DNA of 64,000 nucleotides from Syntrophales bacterium (GTDB taxonomy: Bacteria > Desulfobacterota > Syntrophia > Syntrophales > UBA6807): the NCBI GenBank assembly GCA_040767195.1, contig JAXGPA010000005.1:1-64000 (forward strand). Reading direction: 5' to 3'. The notes under the pieces are model-generated. The model worked only from the letters and a program-made list of their open reading frames with translations. It did not search any database and was not told the DNA's origin. Each line of letters begins with the position of its first letter. Positions within the stretch are counted from its first letter, which is position 1. Shown here piece after piece: positions 1 through 6,744 of the stretch. A program made the position numbers and the translations under genes.

Positions 1-589
1 TCTTCATCCGCATCTTTTCGAGAATGTGGGTGCGATAGGTGCTGATCGTCTTGACGCTCAGGCACAGCTCGTCGGCGATGGCGGAAACCGTCTTGCCCGA
101 GGCGATCATGAGCATGACCTGGTACTCCCGGTCCGACAGGAGTTCATGGGGCGGCCGGGTCATGTCCGAGCCGAGAAACTCGGTGAGGCGTTCCCCCAGG
201 GTGGCGCTGATGTATTTCCCGCCCTCGGCGACTTTCCGGATGGCCGAGATGAGTTCGTTGGGGGCGCTGGCCTTGGTCAGGTAGCCCGAAGCCCCAGCCC
301 GGAGGGCCCGGATGGCATACTGCTCCTCGGGATACATGCTGAGAATCAGAACAGGCAGTTTCGGCAGTTCCTCTTTCAGCTCCTTGAGGACTTCCAGTCC
401 GCTCCGGCCCGGCATGGAGATATCCAGAAGGATGACATCGAGCTTCTTTTTCCGGACACAGGCCATGACCTCCTGGCCGTTTCCCGCTTCGTCGGTCACT
501 TCCATGTCGGGGGTGTCCGAGAGGACCTGCTTGAAGCCGGCCCGCACGATGGGATGGTCGTCGGCGATGAGGATGCGGATTTTCTTCAT
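1..589 (-). CDS. NarL/LuxR-family (UvrY-like) response regulator, 3' end beyond window edge
   Basis: Hand-translated from ATG 589 (not in the ORF track): MKKIRILIADDHPIVRAGFKQ...VILLDISMPGRSG...GYLTK...LSDREYQVMLMIASGKTVSAIADELCLSVKTISTYRTHILEKM. Receiver domain plus LuxR HTH; ATGA overlap with the kinase stop. Confidence 0.93.
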   Translation of the reverse strand, partial: MKKIRILIADDHPIVRAGFKQVLSDTPDMEVTDEAGNGQEVMACVRKKKLDVILLDISMPGRSGLEVLKELKEELPKLPVLILSMYPEEQYAIRALRAGASGYLTKASAPNELISAIRKVAEGGKYISATLGERLTEFLGSDMTRPPHELLSDREYQVMLMIASGKTVSAIADELCLSVKTISTYRTHILEKMRMK

Positions 590-2826
590 GGGGCTTCTCC
601 TGTGTTCTCATAGGGAATGCGGACGTTGACCGTGGTGCCTTTCCCCTTTTTTCCCGCGATCTTCACCTCGCCTCCCCAGTGAAACACCCGCTCCCGGATT
701 CCCAGAAGGCCGTAGGAATTCGGCTTGGCCATCTGCTCTTCCGTGATGCCCTTCCCGTTGTCCTTGACGGTGAGGCGGATTTCCCGTCCCGCCTTTTTCA
801 GGGAAACCTGGACCCGCTTGGCCTCGGCGTGGCGGGAGATGTTCGTCAGGGTTTCCTGGAAGATGCGGAAGACGGCCGTGGACAGGTCCGGGTCGAGTTC
901 CATGTCCTCGGGTTCCACGGTGACCCGGCAGGGGATTCCCGTCCGCTTGGAGAACTCGCTGGCCTGCCACTCGATGGCCACGGGAAGCCCCAGGTGATCG
1001 AGCATGCCCGGCCGGAGATCCATGTAGATCCGCTTGAGCGTATTCATGGTCATGTCGACGAGACCCGACATGGTGTCGACCCGTTCCCGGAGCTCCGGCT
1101 GTCCCTCGGGGATCCGGCGGTTCAGGAGGATGATGTCCGTGTTGAGGGCCGTGAGGAGCTGACCCAGTTCGTCGTGGAGTTCCCGGGCAATGCGGGTTCG
1201 CTCCTTCTCCCGGACGGACTGGAGGTGGGCGGAGAGGTTCCGCATCTCCTGGCGTGATCGTTCCAGTTCGTCCTTGGCCCGTTTCCGCTCGGTGATGTCC
1301 TCGTAAGTGATGACGATCCGCCTCTCCTGGAGGCTCTCTCCCGTCCGGGAGGCGCTGACGAGGCACTCGATGTCGGTCCCGTCCTTCCGGCGGCAGGGAA
1401 ATTCGATGCTGTGGGTGCGCTGGGCTTCCAGGGTGGAGTAGAGCTCCCGGGCGATAGCTTCCCAGTCCCTGTCGCTTCGATAGAAGACCCGGGTGGTGGC
1501 GCCGATGAGTTCCTCCGCCCGCCAGCCGAAGACGTGCTCGACCCCGTCGTTGGCAAAGATCACCCGGCGGTCCTGGAGCCCGATGACGGCATGGGGGATG
1601 GCCTCCAGGATCGAGGCCTCGAGGGCCTCCAGCTTGGCCAGTCTCTCCCGGGCCTCGATCTGCTCGGTGATGTCCATGGAATTGCCCAGTACGGCCCGGC
1701 GTTCCTTGTGGAGGATGAAGGTGACCGTTTCCATGATCCACCGGATTCGCCCGTCTTTCGTTATGATCCGGAACTCGTGGGGGGAAGTCCTCTCCCGGTG
1801 GAGCAACCGGTGGGCGTTTTCCTTCACCATGAGGCGGTCTTCCGGGTGGACGAGCTGCATGGAGTTCATGCCCGTGAGTTCCTTCTGGCTGTACCCGGCG
1901 TATCCGGCAGCGTTCTCGTTGACGAACTGGAAGACCCCGTCCTGGACGATGTAGACCCCCGCCTGGGAACTGTCGGCCATGGTCCGGTAGGCTTCCTCGG
2001 CGAGCTTTCGGTCCGTGATGTCCTCGAAGGTGATGACGATGTTTTTTTCCTTGAGGCTCTCGCCGATCCGGGAAGCGTTTATGAGGCACGCGATGTGGCG
2101 CCCGTCCTTCCGGCGGCAGGGGAACTCGATGCTGTGGGTGCTCCGGTTTTCCAGGGTGGAATAGAGTTCCCGGGCGATGGCCTCCCAGTCGCTGTCGCTC
2201 CGGTAAAGGACCCGGGTGGTGGCGCCGATCAACTCCTCCGCCCGCCAGCCGAAAACCCGTTCGACGCCGTCGTTGGCAAAGATGATGCGGCGGTTCTTGA
2301 GACCGATGACGGCATGGGGAATGGCCTCCAGGATCGACGCTTCGAGGGCTTCCAGCTCCGCCAGCTTGTCCCGGGCCTCGATCTGCTCGGTGATGTCCAT
2401 GGAGTTGCCCATGACGGCCCGGCGTCCCTTGTAGCGGATGGAAGTGATGACCTCGGTGATCCAGCGGATGTCGCCGCTTTTGGTGATGGTGCGGAACTCG
2501 TACGAGGAGGTCCGGTTGCCCCGGAGCATCTGGATGGCCGCCTGGCGGACCCGCTCCCGGTCCTCCGGGTGGACGAGACTCGTGGATTCCATGCCGATGA
2601 TTTCCTCCCGAGGGTATCCCCAGTAATCGGCGGCATGCTGGTTGACGAAACAGAACTTCCCGTCCTGGACGACGTAGATGCCCGCCCGCGAGGTGTGCTC
2701 CAGGGTCCGGTAGAGCCCTTCCACGAGGAGGCGGTCCGTTCCCGACGGGGCCAGTTTCTCGAGCTTCCTGCGCAATTGACCGATCTTGCGGACCAGTTGT
2801 TCCCTGCTTGTGGCCTTCTCCTGCAC
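586..2826 (-). CDS. Cytoplasmic multi-PAS sensor histidine kinase (HisKA_3, NarX/UhpB type)
   Basis: Four PAS/PAC segments (VHPEDRE..., DITE/DRK ends), H-box RIARELHDELGQ, N-box FQETLTNISRHA, DNGKG and GLLGIRER boxes; no transmembrane segment; GTG start with GGAGGT RBS. Confidence 0.93.
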   Translation of the reverse strand: MQEKATSREQLVRKIGQLRRKLEKLAPSGTDRLLVEGLYRTLEHTSRAGIYVVQDGKFCFVNQHAADYWGYPREEIIGMESTSLVHPEDRERVRQAAIQMLRGNRTSSYEFRTITKSGDIRWITEVITSIRYKGRRAVMGNSMDITEQIEARDKLAELEALEASILEAIPHAVIGLKNRRIIFANDGVERVFGWRAEELIGATTRVLYRSDSDWEAIARELYSTLENRSTHSIEFPCRRKDGRHIACLINASRIGESLKEKNIVITFEDITDRKLAEEAYRTMADSSQAGVYIVQDGVFQFVNENAAGYAGYSQKELTGMNSMQLVHPEDRLMVKENAHRLLHRERTSPHEFRIITKDGRIRWIMETVTFILHKERRAVLGNSMDITEQIEARERLAKLEALEASILEAIPHAVIGLQDRRVIFANDGVEHVFGWRAEELIGATTRVFYRSDRDWEAIARELYSTLEAQRTHSIEFPCRRKDGTDIECLVSASRTGESLQERRIVITYEDITERKRAKDELERSRQEMRNLSAHLQSVREKERTRIARELHDELGQLLTALNTDIILLNRRIPEGQPELRERVDTMSGLVDMTMNTLKRIYMDLRPGMLDHLGLPVAIEWQASEFSKRTGIPCRVTVEPEDMELDPDLSTAVFRIFQETLTNISRHAEAKRVQVSLKKAGREIRLTVKDNGKGITEEQMAKPNSYGLLGIRERVFHWGGEVKIAGKKGKGTTVNVRIPYENTGEAP

Positions 2827-2868: not shown

Positions 2869-2897
2869 TTTATAGCAAGTATGCCCCTCCGGCGCAA
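2869..2897 (-). promoter_or_regulatory. Putative sigma70 promoter of the kinase/regulator operon
   Basis: Minus strand TTGCGC-17 nt-TATAAA with extended TG, about 40 nt upstream of the GTG start. Confidence 0.5.
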
Positions 2898-3211: not shown

Positions 3212-3358
3212 TCAATAGCCTTCCCAGACCGCATCATGGAGACGTTCGATATGGAAATTCCGCTGTCTCCCGCGGGTCGTTCTTTTCATGCCGGCCTGCC
3301 GGGCCGCGGTTTCTTCTCTCTCCACCATCCAGCCTTTTCTGCCCTCTGTTGTTTTCAT
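3212..3358 (-). CDS. Small protein, paralog 3 (48 aa), unknown function
   Basis: Hand-translated MKTTEGRKGWMVEREETAARQAGMKRTTRGRQRNFHIERLHDAVWEGY*; AAGGAG 7 nt before ATG; C-terminus shared with the two ORFs at 3683-4104. Not in the ORF track. Confidence 0.75.
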   Translation of the reverse strand: MKTTEGRKGWMVEREETAARQAGMKRTTRGRQRNFHIERLHDAVWEGY

Positions 3359-3462
3359 GGATCGACTCCTTTCCTTTGGATCGAATGGTGTTCGTTTTAC
3401 GTCCCTTTACCCGTGGTGGTTCAGGCGGTCTCTCCGTCTTTTCCCGTCTGCCCTATGGCTGC

Positions 3463-3575
3463 ATATTACCGCTCTGAAATTATTGATACAATCAGAAAGG
3501 GTCTGAAAAAAGGATCGGATGGACGAACGGCTTTTCGCAAGACAAACGGCCTTCCGGGGATCGGTGTTTGTCCGA
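3463..3575 (-). promoter_or_regulatory. Promoter module A: sigma70 -35/-10 plus two 15-bp palindromic boxes
   Basis: Minus strand TTGTAT(3491-3486)-17-TAATAT(3468-3463); TCAGAAAGGGTCTGA 3492-3506 abuts the -35; TCGGTGTTTGTCCGA 3561-3575. Confidence 0.65.
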
Positions 3576-3682
3576 CGGCCTCCGCGGAGATCTTGCCTCC
3601 TGTGACGCCCGGTTTGCGTCCGGCTGTACGGCAGGCGGTCCGGCACCGGCGGGGCCGCGAAGCGAGCAAGGGTTGAAACCTG

Positions 3683-3859
3683 TTAAAAGCCCTCCCAGAC
3701 GGCGTCACGGAGGCCTTGGATGTTCAAACGCGCCGGCCTCCTGCCGTGTGTCCTCTTCCCGGTATCCTCCCGAGTGAAGAACCATTCCGTTTCCACGTTT
3801 TCCAGGCCGGCCCCTTCCCGACCGGTCACCTGTATCCTATTCCACTCCGTCCTTTTCAT
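3683..3859 (-). CDS. Small protein, paralog 2 (58 aa), unknown function
   Basis: MKRTEWNRIQVTGREGAGLENVETEWFFTREDTGKRTHGRRPARLNIQGLRDAVWEGF*; AAGGAG 7 nt before ATG 3859; aligns without gaps to paralog 1. Confidence 0.75.
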   Translation of the reverse strand: MKRTEWNRIQVTGREGAGLENVETEWFFTREDTGKRTHGRRPARLNIQGLRDAVWEGF

Positions 3860-3927
3860 GTCGCAGCTCCTTTCAGCCAGGTGCTCCCCGTTCCCGGAAG
3901 CCCAGGCATGACGAGGACCGTTGCCTC

Positions 3928-4104
3928 TCAATAGATGCCCCAGACAGTGTCGTGGAGAAAACCGACATTGAAATCCGCCTGCCTCTTGTGGACCGTTGTT
4001 TTCACCCCGGTCTTGAGCGCGAGGGTCCATTCCACTTTGCCGTGTCTCCTGCCGATCGCTTCCTGGTGGACCATCAATCCATCATGCCATTCCGGTCTTT
4101 TCAT
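3928..4104 (-). CDS. Small protein, paralog 1 (58 aa), unknown function
   Basis: MKRPEWHDGLMVHQEAIGRRHGKVEWTLALKTGVKTTVHKRQADFNVGFLHDTVWGIY*; AAGGAG 7 nt before ATG 4104. Confidence 0.75.
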   Translation of the reverse strand: MKRPEWHDGLMVHQEAIGRRHGKVEWTLALKTGVKTTVHKRQADFNVGFLHDTVWGIY

Positions 4105-4218
4105 GGCCCGTCTCCTTTGATTGTTTCGTTTATGTTTTCGAAGCCTCCCGCTCATGCTGCCGTTCAGGCGGCCCCGTCTTGTTTTTGTCTCTTCCTCTAT
4201 TTTCCTTCTGTTGGTCGT

Positions 4219-4331
4219 ATCTTACAGAGGCGATTTTGATGGTGCAATCGGGGAGGATCTGAAAAGCAGATCGGATGCGAAGACAACCGGCCGCAAGACA
4301 AAGGACCTTCCGGGGGTCGGTGTTTATCTGA
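4219..4331 (-). promoter_or_regulatory. Promoter module B, diverged copy of module A
   Basis: Minus strand TTGCAC(4247-4242)-17-TAAGAT(4224-4219); TCGGGGAGGATCTGA 4248-4262 abuts the -35; TCGGTGTTTATCTGA 4317-4331; same 69-nt box offset as module A. Confidence 0.65.
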
Positions 4332-4536
4332 TCGGTCTTTTCTCCGACAAAGGATATCCCGAAAGCGGGAAAGAAAGAGCGGGGAAGCGGACAGGGGAAA
4401 GCCGGCAAGGCGGAACCATCGGGCCAGGGCCTCCGGCGAGATATGGATTGATGAATTCATGAAAGATCTGGTAAGGTTTTCGTCGGCAAAGACCGTATCA
4501 AGGGGACCCCGCAATGATTTTTTGGAGAATCCTTCC

Positions 4537-6744
4537 ATGACGTCCACGACCGCCGGCGATCTGACCGTTCTCCAGGGCCAGATCGAAAGAGTGACGTACA
4601 CCAACGAGGAAAACGGGTACACCATCGCCCGGGTCAAGGTGTACGGGCGGCGGGATCTCGTCACGGTGATCGGGAACATGGTCAACCCCACCCCCGGCGA
4701 GATCGTCCGGATGGAGGGGGCCTGGGGAACCCACCCGAAATACGGCGAGCAGTTTCGAATCGTCCACTGCCGGAGCACGACCCCGGCCACGGTCCACGGC
4801 ATCGAGAAATACCTGGGATCGGGCCTCATCAAGGGGATCGGTCCCGTCATGGCCCGCCGGATCGTGAAGCGGTTCCGGGAGGAAACCCTGGATGTCATCG
4901 AGAAGGACATCGAACGGCTGGCCGAGGTCGACGGGGTCGGCGAAAAACGCATCGACATGATCCGGAGGGCCTGGGCGGAGCAGAAAGAGATCCGGGAAGT
5001 CATGGTTTTCCTCCAGTCCCACGGTGTCAGCACCGCCTACGGAGCGAAGATATACAAGCAGTATGGCCGGGACGCGATCTCGATTGTCCGGGAGAACCCC
5101 TACCGCCTCGCCGCGGACGTTTTCGGCATCGGTTTCGTCACCGCCGACCGGATCGCCGAGAAACTCGGGTTCGCCAGGGATTCGGACCTCCGGGCCCAGG
5201 CGGGCCTACTCTACGCACTCCATGAAATGGCCGACGAGGGACACGTATACGGCCCCTATGAGACCCTGGTAGAGAAATGCCGGGAGCTTCTCGGCATCGA
5301 CCGGGACGTGATCCTTCGGGCCCTGGCCGCCGCGGCCCTGGAGAAACAGGTGGTCATCGAGGACCTGAACGAAGACGGCCCGGAATTCCGGGAAAACCAC
5401 AAGGCGGTCTATCTCGCCGGGTATCACGTGGCGGAAACCAACGCCGCCGCCCGGCTCCGGGCCCTTCTCGACACCCCTCCGGCGGTTCGGAAGATCGACG
5501 CCGACAAGGCCCTCCCCTGGGTCCAGGAGAAGCTCTCCATCCGCCTGGCGGAAAAACAGGTCGCCGCGGTCCGGTGCGCTTCCGAGAACAAGATGATGGT
5601 CATCACCGGGGGGCCCGGGACGGGAAAAACCACGATCATCAACGCCGTTCTGAAACTATACTCCGCCGTGGGGACGAAAATCCTGCTTGCCGCCCCCACG
5701 GGAAGGGCGGCGAAGCGGATGAGCGAGACCACGGGGCAGGAGGCGAAGACCATACACCGTCTTCTCGAATACAACCTGAGAAAGGGGGGCTTTCAGAAAA
5801 ACGAGAACGCGCCCCTCGACGTGGATCTTCTCGTCATCGACGAGGCTTCCATGATCGACACGATCCTCATGCATCACCTCCTCAAGGCCGTTCCCGGAAG
5901 GGCCACCCTGATCCTCGTGGGGGACGTGAACCAGCTTCCGTCCGTCGGTGCCGGGAACGTCCTGAAGGACATCATCGATTCGGGTGTCGTCCCCGTCGTG
6001 GCGCTCAGTGAAATCTTCCGCCAGGCCCGGGAGAGCTCCATTATCGTCAACGCCCACCGGATCAACGGGGGGACCCTGCCCGTGTTCGAAAACGCCGGGG
6101 ACGGCCTCGACGATTTTTACTTCATCGAGCAGGAAGACCCGGAAAAGGTGCTGGAGATGATCATCCGTCTCGTCGGGGAGAGGATCCCGAAACGGTTCGG
6201 GCTCTCGCCGGTGACGGACATCCAGGTCTTGACCCCCATGCACCGGGGCACCGTCGGGGCGGCCAACCTGAATGTGGCGCTTCAGAAAGCGCTCAACCCC
6301 GGTGAAGGCGGGGTCACCCGGGGCGGAAACACTTTCCGGGTCGGTGACCGGGTCATGCAGATCGTGAACGACTATGACCGCGAGGTTTACAATGGGGACA
6401 TCGGGCGAATCATCGCCATCGACGGCGAGACCGCCGAAGTCACCGTGGTCATCGACGGCCGGGAGGTCGTTTACGATTTCTCCGATCTCGACGAGCTCGT
6501 TCTCGCCTATGCCGTGTCGGTCCACAAATCCCAGGGATCCGAGTACCCCGCCGTGGTGATCCCCGTCCTCACCCAGCACTACATCCTTCTCCAGAGAAAC
6601 CTTCTTTACACGGCGGTGACCCGGGGGAAAAGGCTCGTTATCCTGGTGGGAACGAAAAAGGCGGTGGCCATCGCCGTCCGGAACAACCGGACGGAAATGA
6701 GGTACACGGGGCTCAGAAGGAGGCTGGCGCGCCGCGAGCCTTGA
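4537..6744 (+). CDS. recD2: ATP-dependent RecD2 (RecD/TraA-like) SF1B helicase
   Basis: N-terminal OB/HhH region (YLGSGLIKGIGP, ENPYRLA), Walker A GGPGTGKT, DEASM, VGDVNQLPSVG, YAVSVHKSQGSE, LLYTAVTRGK; ATG 4537 has a GGAG RBS (ORF open from 4459). Confidence 0.93.
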   Translation: MTSTTAGDLTVLQGQIERVTYTNEENGYTIARVKVYGRRDLVTVIGNMVNPTPGEIVRMEGAWGTHPKYGEQFRIVHCRSTTPATVHGIEKYLGSGLIKGIGPVMARRIVKRFREETLDVIEKDIERLAEVDGVGEKRIDMIRRAWAEQKEIREVMVFLQSHGVSTAYGAKIYKQYGRDAISIVRENPYRLAADVFGIGFVTADRIAEKLGFARDSDLRAQAGLLYALHEMADEGHVYGPYETLVEKCRELLGIDRDVILRALAAAALEKQVVIEDLNEDGPEFRENHKAVYLAGYHVAETNAAARLRALLDTPPAVRKIDADKALPWVQEKLSIRLAEKQVAAVRCASENKMMVITGGPGTGKTTIINAVLKLYSAVGTKILLAAPTGRAAKRMSETTGQEAKTIHRLLEYNLRKGGFQKNENAPLDVDLLVIDEASMIDTILMHHLLKAVPGRATLILVGDVNQLPSVGAGNVLKDIIDSGVVPVVALSEIFRQARESSIIVNAHRINGGTLPVFENAGDGLDDFYFIEQEDPEKVLEMIIRLVGERIPKRFGLSPVTDIQVLTPMHRGTVGAANLNVALQKALNPGEGGVTRGGNTFRVGDRVMQIVNDYDREVYNGDIGRIIAIDGETAEVTVVIDGREVVYDFSDLDELVLAYAVSVHKSQGSEYPAVVIPVLTQHYILLQRNLLYTAVTRGKRLVILVGTKKAVAIAVRNNRTEMRYTGLRRRLARREP

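Follow-up and report, generated by a model that had tools for sequence, protein, structure and literature searches.

ComP-ComA and DegS-DegU are two-component systems of the HisKA_3/NarL type, and GacA, in the 2009 work of Brencic, is said to act exclusively through RsmY and RsmZ. In Bacillus subtilis, ComA-P activates degQ and srfA/comS; DegQ raises the transfer from DegS to DegU, and ComS competes for MecA, as described in the part of the source drawn on here (PMC5118428). Small proteins that bind a sensor kinase include, in the excerpts cited, Sda of B. subtilis, with 46 aa (PMC10730256), and YoaI of Escherichia coli (PMC11429745). The MxtR/ErdR (CrbS/CrbR) system has a NarL-type regulator of acs and acyl-CoA genes, whose ErdR site is given as a short imperfect inverted repeat, GAC-N4-GTC, in the sections used (bioRxiv 10.64898/2026.09.07.749794, PMC8402216). 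The BvgA promoters of Bordetella carry dimer arrays in which the sites are 22 bp apart and the final one adjoins the -35 element (PMC7250471, in part).

The window analysed here, that is, the whole stretch of 64,000 nt from a Syntrophales bacterium (assembly GCA_040767195.1, contig JAXGPA010000005.1), contains three small genes, A, B and C, next to a kinase-regulator pair. Like the DegQ/Sda-type accessory proteins, their predicted products are small, cytoplasmic and genetically tied to one kinase-regulator pair, and like DegQ and ComS, in what the cited part tells of these, they would be transcribed by a response regulator. Unlike DegQ and ComS, however, which come from a different phylum and have no sequence match to A, B or C, they belong to a setting where one promoter type is common to several paralogues and to five or more motif families. 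Sda differs as a folded helical hairpin under DnaA control and YoaI as a membrane protein, both without sequence match to the three. As with GacS/GacA-RsmY/RsmZ, the predicted regulon is one of small, multi-copy products, and UvrY/GacA is the best model for the regulator; however, unlike in GacS/GacA (BarA/UvrY-CsrB/C), the products are proteins under codon selection, CsrA was not found in the genome and the kinase is a soluble PAS-HisKA_3 protein, not a membrane hybrid kinase. The likeness to MxtR/ErdR, within the sections used, lies in a NarL-type regulator, its predicted control (in relatives) of acs and acyl-CoA genes and a similar box, but the box here is T[CA][GA]GAC-AAAC-ACCGA, the ErdR model scored only 82 bits against a cut-off of 390, the kinase is a different one, and a micro-protein output is not among the features described in those sections. 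With the BvgA promoters only the geometry is shared, a 23-bp period here with the last box abutting the -35, whereas box sequence and targets differ.

Already known, as far as these excerpts reach, are small proteins that are controlled by two-component systems or act on them (DegQ, ComS, Sda, YoaI) and an acyl-CoA regulator, ErdR/CrbR. New are the A/B/C family itself, its predicted operator and a regulon made up largely of several motif micro-protein families. A literature search, with most subscription journals and supplements outside its scope, found nothing on this system, nor on small-protein regulation in syntrophic fatty- and aromatic-acid degraders, organisms that limit methane formation in digesters and sediments. 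Small-protein catalogues may list the A/B/C sequences unnamed.

Three small genes and their family

Genes A, B and C lie on the minus strand in the gap between the kinase gene and recD2 (4459-6744, plus strand) of a 2.39-Mb genome (G000, 98.8% complete). Gene A (3928..4104, 58 aa) has the tail QADFNVGFLHDTVWGIY, gene B (3683..3859, 58 aa) the tail PARLNIQGLRDAVWEGF and gene C (3212..3358, 48 aa) the tail QRNFHIERLHDAVWEGY. The initial annotation had read the ends LHDTVWGIY, LRDAVWEGF and LHDAVWEGY correctly, as it had the three minus-strand ORFs (4104-3928, 3859-3683, 3358-3212), the AAGGAG exactly 7 nt 5' of the ATG in each of them and every identity in the gapless alignment of A with B. The mechanical ORF list does, as remarked there, mis-start two genes, stretching A to 4155 and B to 4030; ordinary gene callers miss or mis-start such genes. 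Pairwise tblastn among A, B and C within the 2.39-Mb genome gave E-values of 7e-5 to 5e-4, no further match with E <0.08 was among the matches listed, and a fourth copy sought across the genome was not found. An ORF-terminal L.D.[VIL]W occurs three times in the region, and at least once in just 8 of 3000 Markov-resampled copies, for a motif picked post hoc. The net charge is +2 to +4 and the maximum 19-residue hydropathy -0.15 or lower; at 48-58 aa and without a hydrophobic stretch, the three products are predicted to be small cytoplasmic proteins.

Strain-level copies of the locus, whole or partial, are present on five metagenome contigs (seven matches in all). The reading frames are unbroken in the 4-5 metagenome homologues available per gene, and pN/pS is 0.22 for A, 0.17 for B and 0.28 for C; the selection check suggested from the window alone (dN/dS on homologues) thus indicates purifying selection. 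In three of five strain-level homologues the tail of B has LHD instead of LRD. Between nine divergent copies of the motif, codon position 3 differs in 49% of the comparisons, positions 1-2 in 25-26%. Judged by these substitution patterns, A, B and C are almost certainly coding genes. A small share of the stretch was contained in 12 of the 16 RNA runs listed. In the four examined closely, all as contigs and not reads, run X2 has related-strain contigs over the micro-ORF region, but over the flanks too, and may contain DNA; X6 and X7 cover the kinase and recD2 but not 3511-4446; and X8 has a single 188-nt piece at 3423-3610.

The core of the family is FNVELLHDAVWxG, with a constant part of about 14 residues (xFNVELLHDAVWxG), and an MKRTEW start is common among members, yet dispensable. 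In most members the motif ends at the stop codon. Of the variable N-terminus and fixed aromatic C-terminus first described for the three genes, the variable N-terminal part and the fixed C-terminal motif stand, whereas the aromatic end is not fixed, the tails of relatives ending in WEG, WPG, WKA and WDDM. Because of these ends, and of the internal motif copies in three proteins (two genes of G263 and P0012, with the motif twice each), a free aromatic C-terminus is not required. The members in genus g20 end in LQDAIKGIINNQVP and link the family to a broader group of helix-like peptides that end in NxVP.

The family profile matches 11 of the 277 genomes of the order that are at least 85% complete, from four families: G000, G009, all seven of genus g20, G263 and G038. 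In a phylum sample of 301 genomes, G000 alone scored. A 50%-representative library gave 13 profile matches, including one repeat artefact and five new divergent members. P0009 (819 aa, 12 stretches), a tandem-repeat sequence without the motif, was dropped, as was the second profile match in G090, with three stops; the matches of a motif-only profile across all 339 genomes in G050, G109, G184 and G245 (E 0.005-0.009) were unrelated genes or frames. The motif was found in none of 8000 candidates among longer proteins (171-2000 aa), which is weak evidence. Nothing exceeded the Pfam cut-off for A, B, C or 26 aligned members, nor the NCBIfam cut-off for the family, the PDB had 0 matches at E 10 and the ESM Atlas clusters no usable match, in agreement with the early impression that no known family was involved. 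AlphaFold2 on A with a 26-row family alignment was uninformative (pLDDT 52, pTM 0.17), and because it gave no confident structure, the helix proposed for the motif is based on residue spacing.

Multi-box promoters and the kinase-regulator pair

A predicted regulator-activated promoter (4219..4331, minus strand) precedes A, its assignment resting on conservation. It has four 15-bp boxes with a 23-bp period, from box 1 (4331-4317) to box 4 (4262-4248), then the -35 TTGCAC (4247-4242), 17 nt and the -10 TAAGAT (4224-4219). Gene C has a promoter predicted in the same way (3463..3575, minus strand), also with four 15-bp boxes and a 23-bp period (3575-3561 to 3506-3492), the -35 TTGTAT (3491-3486), 17 nt and the -10 TAATAT (3468-3463). 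The two are 76% identical over 91 nt, the last box abuts the -35 in both, and two weaker inverted boxes occupy the 23 and 46 positions. Overlooked in the initial annotation, they were recognised from the alignment, a simple promoter scan having listed neither. The transcripts are predicted to begin just below 4219 and 3463, by a few bases. No promoter of its own was found for B, which is therefore likely co-transcribed with A.

In 40 collected elements, box 1 reads T[CA][GA]GACAAACACCGA, and the proximal box TC[AG]GA-N6-C[CT]GA is followed at once by the -35 TTG, 17 nt and the -10 TAnnnT, of which T, A and T are found in 38, 37 and 30 of the 40 at the fixed distance of 17 nt. Most boxes are spaced 68-70 or 115-116; 47 and 92 occur once each, and three cases are off-period or doubtful (42, 83, 90). 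As an independent check, all GTDB genomes were scanned with a pattern from which the first 8 nt of box 1 had been removed; the complete box was present in 17 of the 32 matches (score ≥25, vs ≤6.3 for the rest). Each of these 17 comes from a record titled Syntrophaceae or delta-proteobacterium, and 11 of them have the kinase or regulator gene no more than 2.5 kb away; the remaining 15 matches score low and mostly belong to unrelated taxa. Within G000 two sites score, those of A and C (60.5 and 52.1), followed by one of 16.2, and no reversed or complemented control exceeds 14; the two window promoters had themselves been used for training, and a scan of this kind would pass over targets that are weaker or of another build. 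The contig (C9) also stops inside the regulator gene, where relatives often have further targets. Position and conservation point to the regulator as the protein binding the boxes, and A, B and C are likely under its control. A site resembling box 1, nearly palindromic and accompanied by a weak proximal box, is located at about 262206 of contig C1 of G000 (minus strand), some 300 nt upstream of two tRNA-like genes; it scores below the composite threshold.

The soluble sensor kinase (586..2826, minus strand, 746 aa) has four PAS domains of two types, repeated, with HisKA_3 and HATPase_c and no transmembrane stretch. It is an internal duplication of a two-PAS unit, and its fourth PAS is closer to the second in G000 than in g20, G009 and G038, which suggests a recent homogenisation. 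The NarL/LuxR-family response regulator (1..589, minus strand) is truncated where the contig stops, with about 196 of its 212 aa encoded. Their operon has a sigma70-type promoter (2869..2897, minus strand; TTGCGC, 17 nt, TATAAA) without regulator boxes, kept in G009, G038 and G263. The recognition helix of the regulator, LSVKTISTYR, is essentially invariant in orthologues and different in the other NarL-type regulator of G000. For the G009 regulator, 94% identical to that of the window, the best NCBIfam model is UvrY/SirA/GacA (NF007018), with 181 bits, below the cut-off of 280.

Of 339 genomes, 203 have a kinase homologue. Identity of 82-90% to the kinase of the window is confined to exactly the 11 family-bearing genomes, and the next among the matches listed (150 of 348) reaches 72%, in a count of related and not independent genomes. 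In a regulator tree of 39 rows, with G092 left out, the ten regulators sampled from family-bearing genomes form one clade (100/99), and those sampled from other members of the same four host families are placed elsewhere. The motif thus tracks the signalling clade, not the host family. The association with the adjacent PAS-HisKA_3/NarL pair, which the initial annotation had proposed, thus gains support from co-occurrence across genomes as well as from the tree. The connection legible in the DNA itself is a transcriptional one, through the conserved multi-box promoters. Also, motif micro-ORFs were seen beside 3-4-PAS kinases, and none within about 4 kb on each side of nine shorter or second-paralogue kinases (G206, G209, G187, G281, G023, G257, G016, G035, G265). 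In G263 (contig C28, L116:457-948), a receiver-only regulator paralogue (69% over 120 aa) without a DNA-binding domain lies 34 nt behind a double-motif micro-protein gene and may be a decoy or a truncated gene.

Genes behind the promoter in relatives

At all fetched loci, 69 distinct promoter sequences scored above threshold, 54 before a motif micro-ORF, 11 before a longer ORF and four before neither, in a set that includes strain-level near-copies and is biased by the choice of loci. In a less biased set of 17 promoters, nine stand before motif micro-ORFs and eight before a zinc-ribbon gene, which in these eight records is either fused to a CoA-transferase subunit or stand-alone before 3-hydroxyacyl-CoA dehydrogenase. 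The zinc-ribbon-like protein, encoded directly behind the promoter, has CxxC repeats, EIWGxGAEDL and NPWG, and its domain has no Pfam match (L132:2679-3056, L134:1462-2427, L140, L141, L147, L149, L151, L154).

The same promoter drives, in relatives, at least four further unnamed micro-protein families, at least five with the A/B/C family. These are WxDP[MT]xxP, EFNP, NxVP and WxxWIxxDVF. The WxDP[MT]xxP family has 104 database matches, all unnamed or hypothetical, no Pfam match, and codon position 3 varying at 0.49 vs 0.20. Sister-family genes can share an operon, number as many as four copies (G027), lie at a distance from the kinase (G018, G027) or be combined into a single hybrid chain. 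In the operons EFNP comes first, followed by one to three WxDPMxxP genes (L022:7601-7882, L117, L119, L197 and others), and the four copies in G027 are near-identical. A family of 28-32 aa, RNWxxWIxxDVFSFIRKxKSL, was found behind the same promoter type at L024:4263-4600 (G009) and L124:2454-2549 (G066). None of the sister families was found when sought in G000.

Additionally, in relatives the promoter is present before acs, a protein with ATP-grasp, CoA-binding and GNAT domains, CoA-transferases and 3-hydroxyacyl-CoA dehydrogenase. The ATP-grasp/CoA-binding/GNAT architecture we take to be that of a Pat-type lysine acetyltransferase, and in four of nine 2-PAS kinase loci this gene or acs has the promoter type. 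There the 2-PAS kinases adjoin the Pat-like acetyltransferase or acs, and the promoter has a short 45-46-nt spacing (L098, L100 and L104 in G187, G023 and G257, L099 in G281; Pfam architecture checked for L100). In G000, a multi-box promoter was not found before any acs- or CoA-ligase-like gene, the link to acyl-CoA metabolism being drawn from other lineages. In Syntrophus aciditrophicus, acyl-CoA turnover and lysine acylation are central, according to the portion of the source used (PMC8942843).

Proposed function and competing explanations

Here it is proposed, with a probability of about 0.4, that A, B and C are selected micro-proteins, likely induced by the regulator, which are predicted to titrate a cytoplasmic protein through the 14-residue motif and probably tune acetate/acyl-CoA metabolism. 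The phosphorylated regulator would bind the 23-bp-spaced boxes as a dimer array and activate the promoter from the box abutting the -35. As the only regulator targets detected in G000, the micro-proteins would have to carry the signal onward as the output of the system. Their basic N-terminal part may serve as a flexible linker, the motif would fold as a short hydrophobic helix on the partner, and tandem motifs and gene copies would add avidity and dose. The partner might be an enzyme of acyl-CoA activation or a regulator of such an enzyme, a guess from the regulon of relatives, and the tuning of acetate/acyl-CoA metabolism would then take place after translation. The chances that A, B and C act on a protein outside the two-component system are put at even; should they do so, its belonging to acyl-CoA control is moderately favoured.

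The motif-protein toolkit in relatives comprises chains of 24-97 residues (FNVELLHDAVWxG/NxVP, WxDPMxxP, EFNP, WxxWIxxDVF), which occur in several copies and can be joined in a single chain. A broader and more doubtful proposal is that of a protein counterpart of the Gac/Rsm cascade, in which a soluble, acyl-CoA/acetate-linked two-component system of syntrophs would have its output almost wholly via at least five motif-protein families titrating central proteins, metabolic or regulatory, at the post-translational level. If true, such an output would extend to proteins a principle of design known until now from small RNAs. The locus offers a defined circuit: kinase and regulator, a predicted operator whose consensus is given to the base, and several overlooked micro-protein families, with motifs short enough to be made synthetically.

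The micro-proteins may instead act back on the pair itself: induced by the regulator, A, B and C would bind the PAS domains, the DHp helices or the receiver and alter phosphoryl flow in a DegQ-, Sda- or connector-like manner. DegQ and Sda are precedents, and the strict co-occurrence with one kinase-regulator clade (among the kinase matches listed) and the sighting of motif micro-ORFs with 3-4-PAS kinases, against 0 of 9 of the shorter or second-paralogue loci (about 4 kb each side), are in line with this reading, as is the double-motif gene of G263, whose receiver-only neighbour 34 nt away could be a phosphate sink. The family genes adjoin the kinase operon in G000, G009, G038 and G263, a clustering that fits feedback equally well; however, the cassettes in g20, G018 and G027 are away from the kinase. 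LHD resembles the kinase H-box no more than chance would allow, with 0.6-1.5 equal windows expected per 746 aa and an hhalign probability of 0.5%, and no sister family (E, D, N) resembles kinase or regulator beyond chance. Mimicry of the HisKA_3 H-box by the motif was accordingly rejected, its similarity to the phospho-acceptor helix being at chance level. No other target was found in G000, so that pure feedback would leave the system there without a detected output, which favours titration by an effector. Feedback, the main rival, is considered less probable than titration for A, B and C but remains a strong contender, and both modes may hold for different families. A protease adaptor, also among the first suggestions for this locus, is another candidate role.

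In winged helices of the PhoB kind, the segment before the activation loop touches sigma70, which would suit the idea that the motif copies the helix before the OmpR/PhoB activation loop and makes the proteins anti-activators at RNA polymerase or at such a regulator; against it, the residues matched by the motif are mostly core-facing in winged helices. The best of 624,529 G000 windows for a 12-column profile is indeed FTREMLLDRVWG in Trans_reg_C (18.9 bits, next 15.4) and basic residues precede the motif, but the likeness was found after the fact, profile-profile comparison (hhalign) gives a probability of 0.8% (E 0.072) and just three of 14 Trans_reg_C domains exceed 15 bits, leaving this mimicry improbable. 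About as small are the odds that the genes encode precursors of secreted signal or modified peptides, whose mature tail would be re-imported and sensed by the soluble kinase. A basic N-terminus before a conserved C-terminal core, the RND-type efflux operon next to the g20 cassette and the internal WGG|ET junctions of double-motif proteins would suit such precursors; however, the efflux neighbour is confined to g20, and no modifying enzyme, peptidase or exporter was recognised by eye beside the A/B/C-family loci read. The peptide precursor named among the first suggestions for this locus is not supported, given the absence of a hydrophobic signal stretch, a motif that ends at the stop and loci in which, as far as they were read, a modifying enzyme was not seen. 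Already largely refuted, and the least probable, are CsrB/RsmZ-like RNAs titrating CsrA with incidental ORFs, as the UvrY/GacA model and the purine-rich transcripts might suggest: CsrA (PF02599) was found in G009 and G038 but not in G000, G263 and G088 (five tested), GGA is not enriched (28 vs 23.3 expected, 10 vs 11.3), the ORFs are under codon-level selection, and Rfam gave no match, the best being RsmY with 13.9 bits vs 57, on the wrong strand and in the wrong place.

An attenuator or leader role for C was discarded, since the kinase has its own conserved promoter and folding of the C region is not more stable than that of shuffled sequence (z 0.69). Between C and the kinase promoter, G000, G009 and G038 have in common a non-coding element (3158-3052, minus strand), for which no Rfam match was found and BLAST gave matches in just two of 258 genomes. 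It has two hairpins around CTACCTCCT, an anti-Shine-Dalgarno-like stretch (3115-3107), with weak covariation (4 of 26 pairs), and could be a 3' RNA element or a small RNA.
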